From positions 11,648 to 75,647 of the forward strand of contig CAZPGX010000002.1 in the NCBI GenBank assembly GCA_964586605.1: a stretch of DNA of 64,000 nt, in the 5' to 3' direction. Under the pieces are notes generated by a model that worked only from the letters and a program-made list of their open reading frames with translations, was not told the origin of the DNA and ran no database searches. The DNA comes from an uncultured Planctomycetia bacterium (GTDB lineage: Bacteria > Omnitrophota > Gorgyraeia > JAFGHF01). Below are positions 2,044 to 40,494 of this stretch, piece by piece. Position 1 is the stretch's first letter; each line of letters starts with the position of its first letter. The position numbers were made by a program, and so were the translations under genes.

Positions 2044-4974
2044 TTATCTTCTGTTTGTGGTATAGGGACAGACCTCGCGGTAGGCGCAATATTTACAGGC
2101 TAAATAGTTGGGCCTTGCCGGAAATTCCCGCGAGCGAATACCGCAAGAGGCCTGGGCAATTAATTCTTCGGCTTTTTCTAAGTCGCTTTCTTTGCGCCGG
2201 GCCCGGCCGATAAGGCCCGTATCTACGAAATGAAGCTCTACCCTGACCGGGAGTTCGCCTTTAACCATACGATAAGCTAAGGCGTAAATAGAAAGCTGCA
2301 AGGACTCTTTGGTGCGCTTATCCGCCTGTTTTTGTTTGGTTACCGTATCCGAAGTCTTAAAATCAATAATTACCGCGCCCTCTTCCGTTTCATCAATCCT
2401 GTCCCAGCGGCCGACTAGCTTATCCTTGCCCAGGGCAAAATTAAACGATTGCTCGATATAAGCAGGGAGTTTTTTGTCGTTTTCTCGATTGTAAAAATCT
2501 TTTAGTGTCTGTTCTCCCTGAGCAAACCTTTGTTCTTCATGCGCACGCGATAAGAAACCCTCGTTTACCCAAGCAGCTTTAAGGCTCTTAATTAAATCCT
2601 GCTCTGTAAATTTCTTTTTAGCTATTTTTGCCTGATAAAAATCCAGGATGGCCTTATGGATAGCGCTCCCATAGACTACGCTGTGATGGCGCATAATCGG
2701 AATGCGCAGGATATGCACATATTTATATTTTAGGGGACAGGTCAGGTAATCATCAACCTGGCGGAAGCTTAATCGCAATAACTCATCCGAAGATATCGGC
2801 TTTTCTTTAACAGCCGGGGCGGAGGCCCTGGGCGCAAAACGTCTGATTTCCTCAAGGGCTTGAGTCTTGATTACCTCAGGTTTCTGCGGGCTAATATCCA
2901 GCGCTTCATAGATAAACTGGCTGACCTTGCGCGTGCGTTTTCCGCCATAATCTAAGCTTGAAGTAAAATATAATTTATCCTTTGCGCGGGTCATCCCGAC
3001 ATAAAAGAGCCTTCTCTCCTCCTGAATATGATAATCGCCGCCGGGCAATATATCTTTGATCAATTCAAGCGGCATCTCAATGGGCTCACGGCGCCTGGGC
3101 CAGGGGAAACGCCCCTGCACTAAATTGACTAAAAATACAACGCTAAACTCTAATCCTTTGGCCTTATGCAACGTCAAGATATTTATCGCCTCCAAGTCAA
3201 AATCGGCTTCGGCGGTAGCCGGGTCGTCCCCGGCGGAAATCAGCATATCCAGGTGCTGGACAAAGCTGGGCAGGCGGTCCTCGCTGGTTAAATTCTCAAA
3301 GTTGGCCACAATGTTAAAGAAACGGGCAATATTTTTAATGCGCTGTTCGTTAACAACGCTCTCCTCTTTCATCAGCCTTTTGATATAACCTGATTGTTGC
3401 AAAAATAGATAAAGCAGTTTTCCGGAAGAAAGGCCCCTGGCCTCTTTTAAATAGTGATTTAAATCCTCAACAATCTTTTTAATCTTTACCCGGGTTTTGG
3501 CAGAGATATCGGCAAGCTCCTTAATCTTATCCAGGCAGCTAAAGGCGTTAAATAAAGAACGGTTCTTTTTGTCGGCCCAGTTAAGACAACGCGTTAAATC
3601 GGCCATATCCATATTATACAAGCCGGGAAAGCTGACCAGGTGATACAAGCTAATGCTGTCATCGGGGTCGGCAATGGCGCGCAAAAAAGAAATCAAAAAA
3701 CGGATTTCTTCCTGAGAGTAAAGCCCCTGATTTCCAGAAAAACGCCAGGGAATCAAGCGCATGTTTAAGGCGCGAAGAAAAGGCTGGGCGTCATTATTGG
3801 AGCGTACTAAAATGGCTATTTCTCCATAGGAAAGTTTATTCTTTTTTACTTTCTCTTCAATTATCCGGGCCACCTCATCGGCTTCTGATGAGCCGGTATC
3901 AAAATGAAGATGGTCGATTGCCGGACCTTTCTTTCTCCGGGCGGTGAGTTCCTTGCTGATCTTGCATTTTACCTCTAAGGTGTCCGGGTCATTGTGTTTG
4001 ATCAAGCGGTAGGCCCGATCAAGAATCACTTGAGTTGAGCGGTAGTTTTCGGTAAGCACGACCTGGCGTGCCCCGGGATAATAATCCATAAAATTAAGGA
4101 TATTGCTGATAGCCGCCCCGCGGAACTTAAAGATAGACTGATTATCATCTCCGACGACAGCGATGTTTTTGTGGGCCTGGGCCAGGAGTTTAACCAGCTG
4201 AAACTGGCTGAAATTTGTATCCTGAAACTCATCTACTAAAATATATTTAAACTGTTTTTGATAACGGCTAAGCACAAGTGGTTTTTTGCGGAAAAGATGA
4301 AGCGTAAGATAAACCTGATTAGCAAAGTCGACCTTGCCCTCTTTCATTAAAAATTTTTGATATTTCTCATAGGCCCGGGCAAGCTCCATCTGCGCGCGGG
4401 CGTTCTCTTTTAATTCTTCCTCTTGAGGGCTTTTTTTAGACTTTTCTTCCAGGCCCTTGGCATATTTTAAATATTCCTCCCAGGAGACATCCTCATCGCG
4501 CAGGCGGCTGAAAAGGATTACCAGCGCATCCAGGAAACGCGCCGGGTCGCTTTTAGGGCGGTAATAATCCAGGTTAAACTCATAGAGATGTTCTTTTAAA
4601 AAAATTATTTGATCCGGGCGGGTGAGAACATTGAACTCCGGCTCCAGCCCCAATTCTAAGGCGTTTTCGCGCAGGATGCGGTCGCCGAAGGCATGAAAGG
4701 TGGAGATCCAGATATCCGTATAGCCGTAGGGCACAAGCAGGTCCACCCTTTCCTCCATCTCAGCGGCAGCTTTATCGGTAAAGGTAAGGGCTAAGATTTC
4801 TTCGGGACGGGCTTTTTTGGCAGCAATCAGGTGGGCGATGCGGCGGGTAATAACTGCGGTTTTTCCAGTTCCGGCGCCGGCAATAATTAAAAGCGGGCCC
4901 TGGTCATGTTCGACTGCCTCTTTCTGCCTGGCATTCAGTCCCGCCAATGTCTTGTTTTCAGTCTTCACCGCCAC
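2044..4974 (-). CDS. UvrD/PcrA-family SF1 helicase fused to a C-terminal Cas4/AddB-type PD-(D/E)XK nuclease domain with a 4-Cys cluster
   Basis: The N-terminus carries Walker A (GAGTGKT), and the UvrD motifs (VDEFQDT, TLHKAKGLEF) are present. The C-terminus has Cys...DYLTCPLKY and ...CKYCAYREVC, typical of RecB-family Fe-S nucleases. Confidence 0.8.
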   Translation of the reverse strand: MAVKTENKTLAGLNARQKEAVEHDQGPLLIIAGAGTGKTAVITRRIAHLIAAKKARPEEILALTFTDKAAAEMEERVDLLVPYGYTDIWISTFHAFGDRILRENALELGLEPEFNVLTRPDQIIFLKEHLYEFNLDYYRPKSDPARFLDALVILFSRLRDEDVSWEEYLKYAKGLEEKSKKSPQEEELKENARAQMELARAYEKYQKFLMKEGKVDFANQVYLTLHLFRKKPLVLSRYQKQFKYILVDEFQDTNFSQFQLVKLLAQAHKNIAVVGDDNQSIFKFRGAAISNILNFMDYYPGARQVVLTENYRSTQVILDRAYRLIKHNDPDTLEVKCKISKELTARRKKGPAIDHLHFDTGSSEADEVARIIEEKVKKNKLSYGEIAILVRSNNDAQPFLRALNMRLIPWRFSGNQGLYSQEEIRFLISFLRAIADPDDSISLYHLVSFPGLYNMDMADLTRCLNWADKKNRSLFNAFSCLDKIKELADISAKTRVKIKKIVEDLNHYLKEARGLSSGKLLYLFLQQSGYIKRLMKEESVVNEQRIKNIARFFNIVANFENLTSEDRLPSFVQHLDMLISAGDDPATAEADFDLEAINILTLHKAKGLEFSVVFLVNLVQGRFPWPRRREPIEMPLELIKDILPGGDYHIQEERRLFYVGMTRAKDKLYFTSSLDYGGKRTRKVSQFIYEALDISPQKPEVIKTQALEEIRRFAPRASAPAVKEKPISSDELLRLSFRQVDDYLTCPLKYKYVHILRIPIMRHHSVVYGSAIHKAILDFYQAKIAKKKFTEQDLIKSLKAAWVNEGFLSRAHEEQRFAQGEQTLKDFYNRENDKKLPAYIEQSFNFALGKDKLVGRWDRIDETEEGAVIIDFKTSDTVTKQKQADKRTKESLQLSIYALAYRMVKGELPVRVELHFVDTGLIGRARRKESDLEKAEELIAQASCGIRSREFPARPNYLACKYCAYREVCPYTTNRR

Positions 4975-15597: not shown

Positions 15598-16301
15598 TAA
15601 CCGAGAACCCTTTTTAATACCTCTTGATAGGCCCCTTCGATGTCGCCTAAATCGCGGCGGAATCTGTCTTTGTCCAACTTTTTATTTGTCTGTTTATCCC
15701 AGAGGCGGCAGGTATCCGGTGAGATTTCGTCGCCTAAAAGGATTTTTCCTTTATGGCGACCGAACTCCAGCTTAAAATCAACAAGCTTCAGGCCTAACCT
15801 GTCAAAAAATTCCTGCAAAATCTTATTAATCTTAAAAGAGTATTGGGCAATTTTATCCATCTCTCTTTTCGTGGCCAGATTCAGGGCATAGATATGGTAT
15901 TCGTTAATTAGAGGGTCATGCAGTGCGTCTTTTTTATAATGGTATTCCAGCACCGGTTCTTTTAGCGCTAGCCCCTCATCAAGTCCCAACTGTTTAGCCA
16001 TGCCTCCGGCAACGATATTGCGAATGGTTACCTCAACCAGGATAATCTCCAATTTCTTCACCAGCATCTCGCGCTCGCTTAGAAGCTTGACAAAATGCGT
16101 AGGCACCCCTTTAGATTCCAAAAGCTTAAAAATACGTACAGAAATTTTATTATTGCAGACGCCTTTGCCTACAATTGTGCCGCGCTTGGTGGCATCAAAG
16201 GCAGTGGCATCATCTTTAAAATCCTGAATTAAAAGGTCGGGGTCATCCGTCTCGTAAACCTTCTTGGCCTTGCCTTCATAGATAAGTTTTCCCTTCTTCA
16301 T
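15597..16301 (-). CDS. purC: SAICAR synthetase
   Basis: 234 aa with a PurC family sequence. Confidence 0.9.
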
Positions 16302-17590
16302 AGTCCTATTCTCCTGAAAATTTTATCTACATGACGCAGATATGACCTTTGGTCAAAGCAATCTTTGATTTCTTTCTTAGTTAGGTGCCTTGTAATCTGC
16401 GTATCGCCTGTTACTACATCCTTAAAATTTAACTCCGATTCCCAGACCCGGGATGCTGCTTGCTGCACTAAATCGTAACTTCTGGTTCGCGAAATTCCTT
16501 TTCCCATTAGGACCAGAAGCAGCCGTTGCGAGAAAATCAGGCCGCGAGTTTTATTTAGATTTTCTTTCATCTTCTCAGGGTAGACTAGCATATTGTCCAC
16601 AATCCAATTAACCTTGGTTAGCATATAATCAAGCAGGATTGTAGAGTCGGGAATGATTACCCTCTCTACGGAAGAGTGGCTGATATCCCGCTCATGCCAG
16701 AGGGCCACATTCTCCAGCGCCGCCTGGGCATTGCCTCTTAAAATGCGCGCCAGGCCACAGATTCTCTCGCAAAGGATGGGATTACGTTTATGGGGCATCG
16801 CGCTTGAGCCTTTTTGGGTTTTGGTAAAAGGCTCCATGGCCTCATTTACTTCACTGCGCTGTAGATGGCGGATTTCCTGAGCAAATCTTTCTAAGGAAGC
16901 GCCAAGCAGGGCAATCGTTACGATAAACTGGGCGTGGCGGTCGCGCGGAATTACCTGGGTGGTGATAGTTGCGGGTTTAAGATTTACCTTTTTGCAGACA
17001 TAGGCTTCCACAGAAGGGTCAAGATGGGCATATGTGCCTACTGCGCCGGAAATCTTGCCATAGCCCACGGCCTCTTGTGCCTCTTCCAGCCTTTTCAGGT
17101 TGCGTTTCATTTCATCGTAGAAAAGGGCAAATTTTAATCCGAAGGTAATCGGCTCGGCATGAATGCCGTGGGTGCGGCCCACGCAAATAGTCTGTTTATA
17201 TTCTCTGGCACGCCTGGCGCAGGAATGAAGCAGCTTTTTCACATCTTCAATCAAAATCCTGGCTGCCTCTTTTAGGCTCATCGCCAGGGTCGTATCTAAA
17301 AGATCGTTCGAAGTCAAACCAAGGTGGAAATAGCGCGAATCCTGCCCTAAATTTTCGCAAACCTGTGCAACGAAAGCAATTATGTCGTGACGGGTCTTGT
17401 TCTCGAGCTCCTCAATGCGCTCAATATTAATTTTGGCCTTCTGCTTGATATTGATTAAAGCCTGTTTGGGGATTTTGCCTTCGCGGTTCAGGGCCTCACA
17501 AACTAAAAGTTCCACCTCAAGCATCCGGCGAAACTTATTCTGATCCTCCCAAATCCGGCCCATCTTAGGAAGAGTGTATCTTTTTATCAT
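16298..17590 (-). CDS. purB: Adenylosuccinate lyase
   Basis: Fumarate-lyase signature [11 protein letters not shown]; 430 aa. Confidence 0.9.
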
Positions 17591-17644
17591 TTTATCCCCC
17601 TTTTAGGAACTTATATTATACCAGATATGGTAGTGTCCAGTCAA

Positions 17645-17690
17645 ACGAAAATAAAAAATCCCCACAGCTTGAAGCTATGGGGATTTCAAG
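17645..17690 (-). terminator. Rho-independent terminator directly downstream of the tRNA-fMet 3' end
   Basis: On the minus strand a 13-bp stem (ATCCCCA(C/T)AGCTT / AAGCTATGGGGAT) is followed by UUUUUUAUUUU. It begins immediately after the encoded CCA. Confidence 0.75.
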
Positions 17691-17734
17691 ATGGTAGCGG
17701 GGGGCCGATTTGAACGGCCGACCTTCAGGTTATG

Positions 17735-18378
17735 CCTACCACTACAGCTTTCGCTGCTTCCCCACCACAAAAGTTCCGTGGTGACAAATTTGTAGTCTGG
17801 ACTATACCTTAACCCCGAATCTTCGGGGTCCCTGCCATCTAGTCTCTACACCTTCCCTCGTTTTAGAGGGCTTGGCTCGGCATTGCCTTGAAATGACATC
17901 GAGGGTTTCACCGAATTTGACAGGTTACCCTTCAAGCGTTACCGCCTGAGGAGCCCATTGGACAATAAATCCCATCGCTCTCTGTAATCTGCTGACTTTG
18001 GTCTGCGTTGCCTTTTATCTGATTCTACAAATGTTATGCTACTTCCATAACGAGAAAAGACAGATATAGGCATTACATAGAACACATTTAAGTCAGCAAC
18101 ATAAGCAATTGCAAAATCAAAATCATTCGTATCGTAACGTTGCCTCAACATATGTCGGCGATTTGTCTTAGTTCGACGCACATCAACATTATAACATTTT
18201 GTCTTCGCGTTAAACCAAGCGCTCTTCACCTGAATACGTATGAGTTTTCTGTCAAGATCGACTGCCAAATCATACGCTAATCGATCTCCAACAGGCCGCA
18301 GCACCCTAAAGCCTCTTTTTAGAAGCTCGGTCGCGACAGCTGATTCTGCAATGTCGGCTTTGAGCTTTGTGTCCATTG
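17735..18378 (-). mobile_element. Group I (IC3-like) self-splicing intron, 644 nt, in the anticodon loop of tRNA-fMet (between U33 and C34, +/-1 nt)
   Basis: The 3' ~200 nt carry a recognisable group I core. The motifs GUCAAAUUCGGUGAAACC, GCAAUGCCGAGCCAAGC and GAAGGUGUAGAGACUAGAUGGCA are followed by a P8 hairpin (ACCCCGAAGAUUCGGGGU) and then by the S-like element AAGGUAUAGUCC. They closely match the Azoarcus pre-tRNA-Ile and cyanobacterial tRNA introns as recalled from memory. The ORF fills the 5' portion. Confidence 0.8.
17939..18376 (-). CDS. Intron-encoded putative homing endonuclease, PD-(D/E)XK family (I-Ssp6803I-like candidate), 145 aa
   Basis: The AUG lies at intron nt 3-5 (MDTKLKAD...). 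The sequence YDLAVDL...RIQVKS fits a D...(D/E)xK nuclease motif. The upstream 19 aa of the six-frame ORF (MIPFVEQRG...) are simply tRNA exon 1 translated. Confidence 0.65.
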   Translation of the reverse strand: MDTKLKADIAESAVATELLKRGFRVLRPVGDRLAYDLAVDLDRKLIRIQVKSAWFNAKTKCYNVDVRRTKTNRRHMLRQRYDTNDFDFAIAYVADLNVFYVMPISVFSRYGSSITFVESDKRQRRPKSADYRERWDLLSNGLLRR

Positions 18379-18465
18379 AGCCTGACGAGCTACCGGACTG
18401 CTCTACCCCGCGTTGTTCTACAAATGGTATCATATTTAACCGCTTAAGTCAACTTCTTTCTTATC

Positions 18466-18804
18466 TTACGATGTCTGCAAAAACCGCGCTAACTTCTCTT
18501 CAAAATCGGACGACTTGAAACCTGCCGGCCGGCCGGCCGGGCCGGATTTGGCTCTCTGGGAATCAGCCCTGAGGCCTTTCATGGTTAAATCAATCTTCCT
18601 GCCCGGACCCAGCTTAATTATTCTGGCCTTGACCCTATCGCCTACCTTAAGATGCTCATTAACATTCTTGACGTAGTCATCGGAGATCTGGGAAATATGG
18701 ATTAAACCGTTACCTCTGCCGTAAATCTTAACAAAGGCGCCAAAGTCCGTAATCTTGGCGACCTCTGCTTCTACCATTTCGCCTATTTTAAAAACCGTCG
18801 TCAT
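18466..18804 (-). CDS. S1 RNA-binding domain protein (YugI / general stress protein 13-like)
   Basis: S1 OB-fold (GEMVEAEVAKITDFGAFVKI...GLIHISQI) with a basic C-terminal tail. Confidence 0.75.
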   Translation of the reverse strand: MTTVFKIGEMVEAEVAKITDFGAFVKIYGRGNGLIHISQISDDYVKNVNEHLKVGDRVKARIIKLGPGRKIDLTMKGLRADSQRAKSGPAGRPAGFKSSDFEEKLARFLQTS

Positions 18805-18816
18805 AACCTGAAGAAT

Positions 18817-20396
<1,580 letters not shown>

Positions 20397-30361: not shown

Positions 30362-30512
30362 TCGAGAATATTTACCCACCGAAGCTTTAGCGAAGGTGGG
30401 CTTCTCAGGATAGGCAATCGTCCGGGCTCCGCTGCATTTCGAAATGCAGCGATTACCGTTGCGGGGCAGCGGAAGGAATCACACCTTCACTTCCTTTGCC
30501 TATCCGGAAAAC
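30362..30512 (-). promoter_or_regulatory. Cobalamin (B12) riboswitch in the 5' leader of btuB
   Basis: The minus-strand RNA contains GGAAGUGAAGGUGUGAUUCCUUCCGCUGCCCCGCAACGGUAA, which has the GGUG...AAUCC...CCCGC-ACUG/ACGG (B12-box-like) pattern, together with a structured hairpin. Confidence 0.65.
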
Positions 30513-30522
30513 AAACTATAAG

Positions 30523-40170: not shown

Positions 40171-40440
40171 GTCCCGAATGTAGAAACTTCATTGAAGTTC
40201 TACCTTCGGGACTGCACCCTGATTTATCTTGGCCCCTAAATAAAAACTTTTAAGTTCTATCCTGCGTAGAACAAAAAGTTTCCTCGCTTCGTTAGGCAGG
40301 TCTTCTGACTTACGGCTTCCTACTCACCAGGCCTTCCCACCCCGAGACTTCGGGACAGTGGCTAATGCTGGTTTTCGCTACCGATTACAGCGGCGGGACC
40401 GCGCTCGAGTTTCACGAGCTTCCCTACACCTAACTTGCAA
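40171..40440 (-). promoter_or_regulatory. Cobalamin riboswitch (aptamer about 40294..40437) plus an intrinsic-terminator expression platform (hairpin 40171..40212 followed by a U-run), upstream of cobC
   Basis: The minus-strand RNA reads GGUGUAGGGAAGC...GUGAAA...GCGCGGUCCCGCCGCUGUAAUCGG...GCCACUG...GGGAAGGCC...GCCGUAAGUCAGAAGACCUGCC. This includes the canonical B12 box GCCACUG and the conserved flanking elements. Confidence 0.85.
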
Positions 40441-40494
40441 TCTATTCAATTGTAATGCTACCATAAACTAAATATCTATCTTTGTCAAGAAAAA

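Follow-up and report, generated by a model that had tools for sequence, protein, structure and literature searches.

An initiator tRNA gene of a probable Omnitrophota bacterium interrupted by a group I intron with a predicted I-Ssp6803I-family homing endonuclease

A start codon at the third nucleotide of a group I intron raises the question of how the same RNA can begin a coding sequence and also contribute to the intron 5′ end, where helix P1 must form. We studied such a case in a 64,000-nt stretch of DNA (hereafter, the window). The initial annotation, made from the letters of the window, had recognized a putative PD-(D/E)XK homing endonuclease ORF in an intron of the initiator tRNA gene, and had suggested that translation and ribozyme folding compete or that splicing regulates expression. 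The analysis below indicates that an initiator tRNA gene is very probably split here by a group I intron carrying an intact homing endonuclease of the I-Ssp6803I family, with the ORF in the terminal loop of P1 (L1).

The split tRNA-fMet gene and its intron

The minus strand of the window contains an initiator tRNA-fMet(CAU) gene interrupted by a 644-nt group I intron (17735–18378) between U33 and C34. Exon 1, tRNA positions 1–33 (18379–18412, minus strand; CGCGGGG...CAGGCU), is found upstream of the ORF in ~50 loci. Exon 2, positions 34–76 (17692–17734, minus strand; CAUAACC...ACCA), includes an encoded CCA. A promoter-like site (18424–18452, minus strand) consisting of TTGACT, a 17-nt spacer, and TACCAT, with a TG ahead of the second hexamer, ends 11 nt 5′ of the tRNA; it is a consensus match only, and the count of two such sites against 1.8 expected in shuffled sequences makes it a weak one. 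A hairpin with a T-run, resembling an intrinsic terminator (17655–17687, minus strand), begins 4 nt past the tRNA 3′ end. The tRNA-fMet gene is thus its own transcription unit, in which the promoter-like site, exon 1, the intron, exon 2, and the terminator-like hairpin follow each other.

Bacterial initiator tRNAs are distinguished by a CAU anticodon, a mismatch at 1:72, an A11:U24 pair, and consecutive G-C pairs at the bottom of the anticodon stem. When the exons were joined in silico, a 77-nt tRNA-Met(CAT) was obtained that was accepted by ARAGORN. Read directly, it contains a C1xU72 mismatch, A11:U24, G30-C40, and G31-C39, while the 29-41 pair is A-U, not G-C. The 1:72 mismatch is kept in the tRNA-fMet of relatives, with different bases. 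ARAGORN reported no tRNA at the split gene when run on the window, because group I introns are not modelled by this program. A search of the window for a second, intronless tRNA-fMet copy returned none, the sole one-mismatch match being at chance level.

The intron begins with CAAUGG and ends with GGUAGG, its omega-G being at 17735. Its ribozyme region (17782–17977, minus strand) is matched by the Rfam group I model RF00028 (E 2.6e-17; 75.3 bits against a gathering score of 50; model positions 1–253). A repeated CA makes the splice junction ambiguous from the window alone. The group I rule, with a U before the 5′ splice site and a G before the 3′ splice site, resolves it, and so does a set of 45 homologous introns, some of which begin with TGG or CG while exon 2 always begins with CAT; the U|...G| boundaries are retained in all 45. 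A survey of complete genomes puts such introns at tRNA position 33/34 (PMC13011429). With the junction so fixed, the AUG begins at the third nucleotide of the intron, as the initial annotation had it.

The exon sequence ...GGCU pairs with a guide sequence, UGGGCU (17957..17952), the pairing including a U-G wobble. Both the guide pairing and the omega-G are kept in the 45 homologues and in ORF-less introns. The latter, whose occurrence among relatives the initial annotation had raised, do exist at the same site (205–280 nt), in Scytonema hofmannii (L072) and in Omnitrophota (L023, L047, L048, L053, and L056), and they share the insertion site, the UGGGCU guide, P2, and the core with the window intron. 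When nucleotides 3–421 are removed from the window intron, the remaining 225 nt are collinear with the ORF-less introns, at 66–75% identity. The only large difference is in L1, which is 2–5 nt long in the ORF-less introns, where an identical UGGGCU follows it directly, and ~419 nt long in the window. By these criteria of alignment and model score, the intron is a group I intron predicted to be self-splicing.

The endonuclease ORF and its family

The 145-codon ORF is present exactly as initially quoted: it occupies 18376..17939 of the minus strand, that is, intron nucleotides 3–440 including the TAA stop codon, and its translation begins MDTKLKADIAESAVATELLKRGFRV. The product matches Pfam PF11645 (PDDEXK_5) with an E-value of 6.4e-45 (153 bits against a cut-off of 26.1) over profile positions 1–137 of 138. 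It also matches the I-Ssp6803I structure, PDB 2OST (E 2.3e-47), with query residues 2–138 aligned to chain residues 3–139, and is ~53–55% identical to I-Ssp6803I over the full length. The proposed I-Ssp6803I-type identity is therefore borne out by these matches. The proposed D...(D/E)xK core was right as to the restriction-endonuclease-like family; the strict motif is not there, and the ORF has instead D36...Q49-V-K51, plus an invariant acid, E11. The PD-(D/E)XK variant of this family is characterized by an acid in helix 1, a D in strand 2, and a Q/E-x-K in strand 3. Residues E11, D36, Q49, and K51, which are the presumed catalytic residues of the family, are invariant in two 34-sequence alignments and are all present in the window ORF.

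An AlphaFold2 model built from the 34-sequence alignment was poor (mean pLDDT 53.6). In a Foldseek search with this poor model (pLDDT ~54), 2OST chains ranked first (E 6e-9), followed, weakly, by the SPARDA nuclease, Hjc, and EcoRV (E 0.07 or higher); we treat this ranking as corroborative. The PD-(D/E)XK fold of the 145-amino-acid protein is inferred from its ~53% identity to the solved structure. A scan against NCBIfam returned no model, so the name that NCBI gives to Omnitrophota homologues, "group I intron-associated PD-(D/E)XK endonuclease", does not come from NCBIfam.

The prototype, I-Ssp6803I, and the tRNA-fMet intron of Synechocystis sp. PCC 6803 were reportedly described by Bonocora and Shub in 2001 and by Zhao et al. 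in 2007 (PDB 2OST). The Synechocystis-type intron as published is 655 nt long with a 150-amino-acid ORF, compared with 644 nt and 145 amino acids in the window. The two systems share the protein family over its full length, the tRNA-fMet host gene, the 33/34 site, and the placement of the ORF between the P1 5′ strand and the guide sequence, in L1. They differ in the host, which is probably Omnitrophota for the window and Cyanobacteria for the prototype, and in the ORF ends: the window ORF starts at nucleotide 3, against nucleotide 21 for the prototype, and terminates within the GUAA loop of P2. The element is thus of a known kind of mobile element, whose family, fold, host gene, and insertion site have already been described.

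Overlap of the ORF with ribozyme helices and its likely effect on expression

The ORF takes up the whole of L1 plus 19 nt that double as the guide sequence, the P2 5′ strand, and the P2 loop. P1 and its extension have a 5′ strand (18361–18382, minus strand) that consists of exon GGCU, intron CA, and then AUGGACACAAAGCUCA, the last corresponding to ORF codons 1–5 and the first base of codon 6. This strand was paired by hand and checked with a mini-intron minimum-energy fold and with pair counts on the 45 homologues. The 3′ strand (17952–17974, minus strand) consists of UGGGAUUUAUUGUCCAA, corresponding to codons W135–N140, followed by the guide UGGGCU. P2 is a hairpin, CCUCAGGCG-GUAA-CGCUUGAAGG (17928–17951, minus strand), in which the ORF stop codon UAA (17941..17939) supplies three of the four GUAA loop bases. 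Across homologues, all nine P2 pairs have changed on both sides, and the ORF stop codon lies within the P2 region in 22 of 43 introns.

As can be seen from this layout, the first ORF codons are complementary to the W135–N140 codons and form with them a long P1 extension that includes a GGACA/UGUCC pairing. The initial observation that the AUG overlaps the P1 region can accordingly be sharpened: the extended P1 includes the U and G of the start codon among its paired bases, and the final codons of the ORF, 420 nt downstream, contain the guide sequence. The minimum-energy fold of the mini-intron is P1 with the extension, and the 13 extension pairs are 94.8% paired over 44 distinct sequences. At one pair, formed by the third positions of an Asp and a Leu codon, so that changes on either side are synonymous, we counted 28 CG, 13 UA, and three UG combinations and no mismatch (n=44), with 13 double changes. 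The helix is absent from free-standing homologues (see below) in which the MDTKLK and W-x-L-L residues are likewise encoded: only 1–4 of 5 pairs are present, and the Asp/Leu third-position pair is mismatched in 5 of 11 cases. Two-sided covariation within the extension is limited to that one pair. Elsewhere the extension consists of conserved coding sequence, and most of helix B persists in free-standing genes (5–8 of 8 pairs), so that conservation of the protein may account for part of the complementarity. The register given to helix B is provisional: in introns L031 and L032 an unbulged pairing fits better than the bulged alternative. The core pairs of P1 were read by hand, since a MAFFT alignment of the 5′ segments misplaced exon columns owing to the variable spacer length; in this reading they show one-sided changes only.

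In the 45 homologous introns the AUG is found at nucleotides 3–10, and at nucleotide 3 in 19 of them. The simplest reason for its position is architectural. The ORF occupies a loop that has 2–5 nt in ORF-less relatives, and the AUG is at nucleotide 3 because the loop that the ORF fills starts after the 2-bp intronic part of P1.

Such an arrangement would make the P1 extension the element that returns the guide sequence from 420 nt downstream to the 5′ splice site. Once the guide sequence is made, P1 would bury the U and G of the AUG, and ribosomes on the ORF would, for their part, cover the guide sequence and P2. Any one transcript is therefore likely to be either translated or spliced but not both, translation proceeding from the pre-tRNA, mainly before the ORF 3′ end is made. 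The competition between translation and ribozyme folding that had been suggested fits the structure and is a reasonable inference. It agrees with published work on other intron endonucleases, such as I-TevI, for which ribosome occupancy is cited as impairing splicing (PMC3073962). In the td intron of phage T4, which carries I-TevI, the ORF end also overlaps ribozyme helices and the translation start is also sequestered by RNA structure; in the window it is P1 itself that would hide the AUG, and the host gene is untranslated. The nascent 5′ 120 nt have no significant structure (z -0.8), a result that is neutral with respect to the translation window.

The position of the AUG could alternatively reflect selection for expression, with anticodon-stem purines of exon 1 ((A)AGG or GGG) acting as a Shine-Dalgarno sequence, so that translation would be possible only from unspliced pre-tRNA and splicing would serve as an off-switch. 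An AUG at nucleotides 3–10 lies 4–11 nt past the exon GG, inside the usual Shine-Dalgarno–AUG spacing, and with just 2–9 intron nucleotides ahead of it no other such sequence is available. However, no clear Shine-Dalgarno sequence was seen upstream of the window AUG, only an AGG in the anticodon stem 4 nt upstream, and AGG or AAGG would be a very weak one. Moreover, the AUG of the Synechocystis-type intron, at nucleotide 21, does not have such spacing, the prototype is given in a review as an example of a non-consensus ribosome-binding site or start codon (PMC3073962), and loop filling predicts the same AUG positions without selection. We therefore consider selection for an exon-borne ribosome-binding site rather doubtful.

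Splicing could also activate expression, if the linear intron, once excised and with a guanosine added at its 5′ end (5′ G-CA-AUG), served as an almost leaderless mRNA for the endonuclease. Its leader would amount to only 3 nt in the window, as in 19 of the 45 relatives, and P1 is no longer needed after excision. Yet bacterial leaderless initiation strongly prefers an AUG at the extreme 5′ end, while the AUG is found anywhere between 3 and 10 nt into the intron, and at 21 nt in the prototype, and the P1 extension can still form in the excised intron and bury the AUG. Translation from the excised intron thus appears improbable, and loop filling remains the preferred explanation for the position of the AUG.

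Mobility and distribution of the element

By analogy with the prototype, the protein would be expected to assemble as a tetramer and to make a site-specific double-strand cut in the palindromic DNA of the anticodon stem-loop in an intronless tRNA-fMet gene, here TCAGGCT/CATAACCTGA. For the tRNA-fMet gene of the window, the predicted intronless target duplex is GGTAGCTCGTCAGGCTCATAACCTGAAGGTCGG; it is the same near-palindromic anticodon stem-loop as the I-Ssp6803I target, with A-T at pair 29-41 where the prototype has G-C. Double-strand-break repair would copy the intron into the cut gene, the intron would protect its own allele by splitting the target site, and the ribozyme would excise itself to leave a normal initiator tRNA.

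Two comparisons bear on this cycle. At syntenic loci, the identity of the endonucleases exceeds that of the neighbouring enolases in 35 of 41 cases and is uncorrelated with it (rho 0.04). In addition, the ORF is decayed or deleted in ~6 of ~45 introns, which carry premature stops or internal deletions (L010, L057, L060, L061, L064, and L067). The identity pattern and the ORF decay match a cycle of homing and decay, and are suggestive of one; high endonuclease identity could also result from strong dual coding and RNA constraint instead of lateral spread.

The decayed ORFs, together with the RNA-level constraint on the ORF ends, would also be expected if the window ORF were itself a decaying or domesticated relic, inactive as a homing endonuclease and perhaps kept only for the P1 and P2 RNA. 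The window ORF, however, is full length, has no frameshift, and retains all family-invariant residues, E11, D36, Q49, and K51 among them. It is 85% identical to intact ORFs in genomes whose enolase is at most 80% identical, and introns L064 and L067 keep P1 and P2 although 200 nt have been lost from inside the ORF, so the RNA does not require the entire ORF. We consider a relic very unlikely. Maturase-only and pseudogene readings of the ORF were likewise rejected.

A 164-amino-acid product starting at 18433 (MIPFVEQRG...), the gene-caller annotation (P0001), has an open frame with an ATG in its favour and is used in public gene calls, but it is almost certainly not the true one: its extra 19 codons (including MIPFVEQRGVEQSGSSSGS) are tRNA exon 1 and upstream spacer, its ATG falls within the predicted −10 region or precedes it, the exon/ORF frame is not conserved (AUG offsets 3–10), the Pfam and 2OST matches begin at residue 1–2 of the 145-amino-acid form, and the equivalent Met is the first residue of all 34 homologues in the alignment, the free-standing ones among them. 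Their N-termini read MDTKLK in most cases and MSNKLK, MNTKLK, or METKLK in three. The longer start had been dismissed at the outset as an artefact of translating exon 1, and rightly so. Because standard tools miss the split gene and call the false 164-amino-acid protein, Omnitrophota genomes will seem to be without an initiator tRNA.

The layout of the window is common to ~45 species-level genomes, mostly Omnitrophota, at one syntenic eno-tRNAfMet-purB locus. The family numbers roughly 1,400 members. Homologues were found in genomes labelled Omnitrophota, Cyanobacteria, Melainabacteria, Patescibacteria, Bacteroidota, and Deltaproteobacteria, the labels of metagenome-assembled genomes being unreliable. 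According to reviews and to a survey of complete genomes from 2026 (survey, PMC13011429), tRNA-fMet introns with PD-(D/E)XK endonucleases occur in Cyanobacteria only. The same composite element is common in Omnitrophota, beyond that published range.

In many relatives the intron is ORF-less and a homologous endonuclease gene stands free, often 55–1160 nt downstream of the tRNA gene; L048, L053, and L072 are examples. An ORF-less intron is likewise paired with a free-standing endonuclease at one target gene in collaborative (trans) homing, known from F-CphI with cyanophage psbA and from T3 gene 5.3 with I-TslI (Zeng et al. 2009; Bonocora & Shub 2009; reviewed in PMC3984707). The window would represent the "united" composite state predicted by that model. 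The published cases concern phage protein-coding genes and HNH or other nucleases, whereas here the host is a cellular tRNA gene, the nuclease is of the PD-(D/E)XK type, and the free-standing copies are candidate partners of the ORF-less introns.

The location of the ORF in L1, where the ORF ends form P1 and a GNRA loop contains the stop codon, amounts to compact dual coding. We tentatively propose, as a possibility, that in this clade the ORF ends have been recruited as an RNA element, the ~14-bp P1 extension, which would turn the tRNA precursor into a self-limiting mRNA. Its AUG, along with any ribosome-binding purines borne by the exon, would stay accessible only as long as the last 20 codons had yet to be transcribed; P1 would then form, hide the AUG, and commit the transcript to splicing. 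As part of the same tentative proposal, endonucleases may have repeatedly switched between free-standing and intron-embedded states at tRNA-fMet 33/34, in several phyla and at one syntenic locus. The free-standing copies beside ORF-less introns offer material for testing how endonuclease genes and introns unite. If the proposal is true, the switches at tRNA-fMet 33/34 would provide a cellular test bed for the Bonocora–Shub model of the origin of mobile introns.

Splice sites of the split tRNA-fMet gene

Read on the minus strand from 18480 to 17640, the window contains a promoter-like site (TTGACT-17-TACCAT by sequence match, 18452..18424), a 34-nt tRNA-fMet exon 1 that matches the 5′ portion of an initiator tRNA (CGCGGGGUAGAGCAGUCCGGUAGCUCGUCAGGCU, 18412..18379), a 644-nt intron (18378..17735), a 43-nt exon 2 that includes CCA and completes the tRNA (CAUAACCUGAAGG...CCGCUACCA, 17734..17692), and a hairpin with a T-run of the intrinsic-terminator type (17687..17655). 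The Rfam group I intron model matched 17977..17782 on the same strand (75.3 bits versus a gathering score of 50, E 2.6e-17). ARAGORN did not detect the split tRNA (18412..17692) in the window; when the exons were joined in silico, it reported a canonical 77-nt tRNA-Met(CAT). The joined tRNA has a C1xU72 mismatch, A11:U24, G30-C40, and G31-C39, features that mark bacterial initiator tRNAs.

Because CA is present at both junctions (GGCU/CA...GG/CAUAACC), three splice registers are possible from the window sequence alone. In group I introns, a U precedes the 5′ splice site and a G precedes the 3′ splice site, and the register that splits the tRNA between U33 and C34 was chosen on this basis. When a single genome from each species was scanned, relatives of the intron ORF turned up at 70 loci, and both exons could be located in 45 of them. 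All 45 introns are preceded by ...GGCT, end with G, and are followed by CATAACC. Several begin with CG or TGG, so the CAT anticodon cannot be the split point. A 2026 survey likewise places cyanobacterial tRNA-fMet introns encoding PF11645 proteins at position 33/34 (PMC13011429). The group I rule and the homologous exon boundaries thus settle the register and bear out the initial annotation, which had put the A of the ORF start codon at intron nucleotide 3.

The ORF can be read as a 164-codon frame (18433..17939) or as a 145-codon form starting at ATG 18376. The longer reading, deposited by gene callers (P0001, MIPFVEQRG...), was rejected as an artefact, as had been proposed from the sequence. 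Among the 45 homologous introns, the AUG lies at nucleotide 3 in 19, 4 in 7, 5 in 11, 6 in 2, 7 in 3, 9 in 2, and 10 in 1, so the frame of the ORF relative to exon 1 is not fixed; moreover, the ATG of the 164-aa frame is at or upstream of the predicted −10 element. Public calls of many other such ORFs are also often extended through tRNA exon 1 (155-213 aa versus 145).

The ORF as the filling of the P1 loop

The initial annotation had asked whether homologous introns lack the ORF, and such introns, 205-358 nt long, were found at the same tRNA-fMet site in 11 related loci (L023, L036, L045, L047, L048, L053, L054, L056, L068, L070, and L072), which include Scytonema hofmannii PCC 7110 (L072) and a Nostoc strain. 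In each, a homologous endonuclease gene lies downstream of the tRNA with the ORF-less 33/34 intron, at a distance of 55-1160 nt and often within the same eno-tRNA-purB locus (for example, L072 1608..2483 and L048 2649..3429). The free-standing gene is intact in most of the 11 loci; in L068 an early stop leaves 48 codons, and in L070 just the first 21 codons are visible before the end of the locus.

In the ORF-less introns, exon GGCU and intronic CA pair with the guide UGGGCU to form P1 with a 2-5-nt loop, and P2 follows immediately; the L023 intron, for instance, begins GGCU/CA-AUUU-UGGGCU-CCUCAGCCGGUAACGGCUGAAGG. The corresponding layout in the window is GGCU/CA-[AUGGACA ... UGUCCAA]-UGGGCU-CCUCAGGCGGUAACGCUUGAAGG. 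After removal of intron nucleotides 3-421, the remaining 225 nt align over their whole length with the ORF-less introns (66-75% identity), the sole large difference being L1, the terminal loop of P1. The ORF is thus a 419-nt filling of L1, and its position explains the AUG at nucleotide 3, which starts at the beginning of L1, just past two intronic P1 base pairs. The last 19 nt of the ORF continue through the guide sequence, the P2 5′ strand, and the P2 loop, where the UAA stop codon (17941..17939) provides three of the four GUAA tetraloop bases.

The P2-region stop is missing in 17 of 43 homologous introns (L001, L005, L007, L008, L024, L032, and others; the P2 loop of L001 is GCAA versus GUAA in the window), and the ORFs extend into the ribozyme core by another 15-43 codons. 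Six of these 17 ORFs end at the UAG inside a conserved GGUGUAGAGACU element; conserved ribozyme motifs therefore serve as back-up stop codons.

The two ends of the ORF also pair with each other. The stretch made up of codons 1-5 and the first base of codon 6 (AUGGACACAAAGCUCA) can pair with the W135-D-L-L-S-N codons (UGGGAUUUAUUGUCCAA), extending P1 by two segments, helix A (GGACA/UGUCC) and helix B. With GAAA in place of the ORF interior, a mini-intron had exactly this extended P1 in its minimum free energy structure (z −4.8 for the entire construct). In the alignment of the 45 homologues (44 distinct sequences), the 13 proposed P1-extension pairs were 94.8% paired. The third positions of the Asp codon (GAC/GAU) and the second Leu codon (UUG/UUA) form C-G in 28 sequences, U-A in 13, and U-G in 3, with no mismatches, both changes being synonymous. 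Since the U-A state is seen in introns with different exon variants, the covariation of this pair appears to have arisen in several independent events. P2, used as a positive control, showed two-sided changes at 9 of 9 pairs.

In the 11 free-standing homologues, the MDTKLK and W-x-L-L residues are encoded too, yet helix A is missing (1-4 of 5 pairs form, with Ser encoded by AGU or substituted); the covarying Asp/Leu pair is mismatched in 5 of them. Helix A is thus a property of the RNA, and one confined to genes that lie in introns. Free-standing genes keep part of helix B, which may largely reflect protein conservation. Both the covariation and the lack of such pairing in free-standing genes support the pairing of the ORF ends in P1.

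With the ORF in this position, the U and G of the AUG would be base-paired in the folded precursor, P1 formation would have to await transcription of the guide sequence 420 nt downstream, and both P2 and the guide sequence would be covered by a ribosome completing the ORF. From this anatomy, it is plausible and reasonable to predict that translation and splicing would be mutually exclusive on any given transcript, in accord with findings for I-TevI and for the ORFs of other introns (PMC3073962).

The endonuclease and its relatives

The 145-aa product matched Pfam PF11645 (PDDEXK_5) over nearly the entire profile (E 6.4e-45), and its one match among solved structures was 2OST, I-Ssp6803I (E 2.3e-47, residues 2-138). 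In two alignments of 34 family members each, which span several phyla and include both intron-encoded and free-standing copies, E11, D36, Q49, and K51 are invariant, as is, among others, the block D65-R-R-T-x-T-N-R-R; all invariant residues are present in the window ORF. These results uphold its assignment as a putative I-Ssp6803I-type endonuclease. The D...(D/E)xK core initially read from the sequence was right as to nuclease family and wrong as to a strict (D/E)xK, since the motif is D36...Q49-x-K51 with the extra acid E11. Foldseek, run with a poor AlphaFold2 model (pLDDT 53.6; an alignment of 34 sequences as input), placed four 2OST chains on top (E about 6e-9), followed weakly by the SPARDA nuclease domain, archaeal Hjc, and EcoRV. 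The predicted PD-(D/E)XK fold rests on about 53% identity to the crystal structure, which is sufficient. The family is a large one, two database searches having given 923 and 1,440 clusters. Residue 12 of 2OST chain A is Q, while E11 is invariant in all 34 natural sequences, including one 95% identical to it; the crystallised chain may be an engineered inactive variant.

That 95% identical protein is encoded on the L071 contig, which served as a stand-in for the prototype: its intron is exactly 655 nt and its ORF 150 aa, the figures published for Synechocystis PCC 6803 (PMC1995217). Its exon 2 start (CATAACCCGAAGG) and guide region agree in type, and the ORF likewise lies between the P1 5′ strand and the guide sequence, with its AUG at intron nucleotide 21 rather than 3. 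The window element is therefore the same Synechocystis-type composite element, with its 5′ junction drawn tighter. Once reconstituted, the window target differs from the cyanobacterial one solely in the 29-41 anticodon-stem pair (A-T for G-C), and retains the palindrome TCAGG...CCTGA.

In a rough neighbour-joining tree (one 34-sequence alignment, no bootstrap or maximum-likelihood support), free-standing and intron-borne copies are interleaved: L023 lies beside L011 and L048 beside L029, and a clade of free-standing copies from cyanobacteria takes in the Synechocystis type. The branching pattern suggests that the ORF may have moved into or out of the intron repeatedly. A free-standing endonuclease with an ORF-less intron is a proposed precursor of mobile introns, and the arrangement at the 11 loci resembles the collaborative-homing pairs of phages (PMC3984707).

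Two further loci stand apart. At L069, which encodes the most divergent homologue (51% identity), the endonuclease gene adjoins an opposite-strand group I intron in divergent orientation (2626..2829 (−) and 3001..3432 (+)). L058 carries a 527-codon ORF with an endonuclease-like N-terminus (3001..4584), which may be a fusion or read-through into another gene; a pattern search of this locus did not find tRNA-fMet exons.

Host, distribution, and mobility

The gene order enolase, DivIC-like, S1-domain, tRNA-fMet, purB (window 16298..20363) is syntenic with most of the 70 loci, and this conservation across most Omnitrophota loci makes the intron-bearing tRNA-fMet gene orthologous across the phylum. 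Enolase and PurB are 80% and 77% identical to those of a complete Candidatus Omnitrophota chromosome (L001, CP070837.1), so the window very probably derives from an Omnitrophota bacterium. Identical ORF copies occur on three metagenome contigs. The 3′ part of the S1-domain gene contains a GGCC-type repeat run (ccggccggccggccgggccgg, 18520..18550) encoding a PAGRPAG stretch. Elsewhere in the window, cobalamin riboswitch matches were strong at 40278..40448 (−) (95 bits) and barely above the gathering score at 30396..30518 (−) (35.7 versus 31.5).

Of 41 syntenic loci, 35 showed higher identity to the window copy for the endonuclease than for enolase, with no correlation between the two identities (Spearman 0.04). 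About 6 of the 45 introns have decayed or internally deleted ORFs. High endonuclease identity and sporadic decay fit the invasion-and-decay cycle of homing elements. A further contribution could come from strong dual constraint on the ORF. P1, P2, and the core are retained in the loci with premature stops (L010, L057, L060, and L061) or internal deletions (L064 and L067, introns of 503 and 442 nt), as well as in the expanded 1268-nt intron of L063.

Reviews describe the family as "generally encoded in cyanobacteria" (PMC3384342), in complete genomes the 2026 survey reports it in tRNA-fMet of Cyanobacteriota only (PMC13011429), and our literature search found no paper tying Omnitrophota to this intron. 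Measured against that literature, its presence throughout the phylum is new, although database annotation already shows it, NCBI naming members, including those of Omnitrophota, "group I intron-associated PD-(D/E)XK endonuclease". Thus, the initial observation and the interpretation of the protein are confirmed, and an element of a well-characterised kind is extended to a new phylum. Since ARAGORN is blind to the split tRNA, genomes of this group will seem to be without an initiator tRNA.
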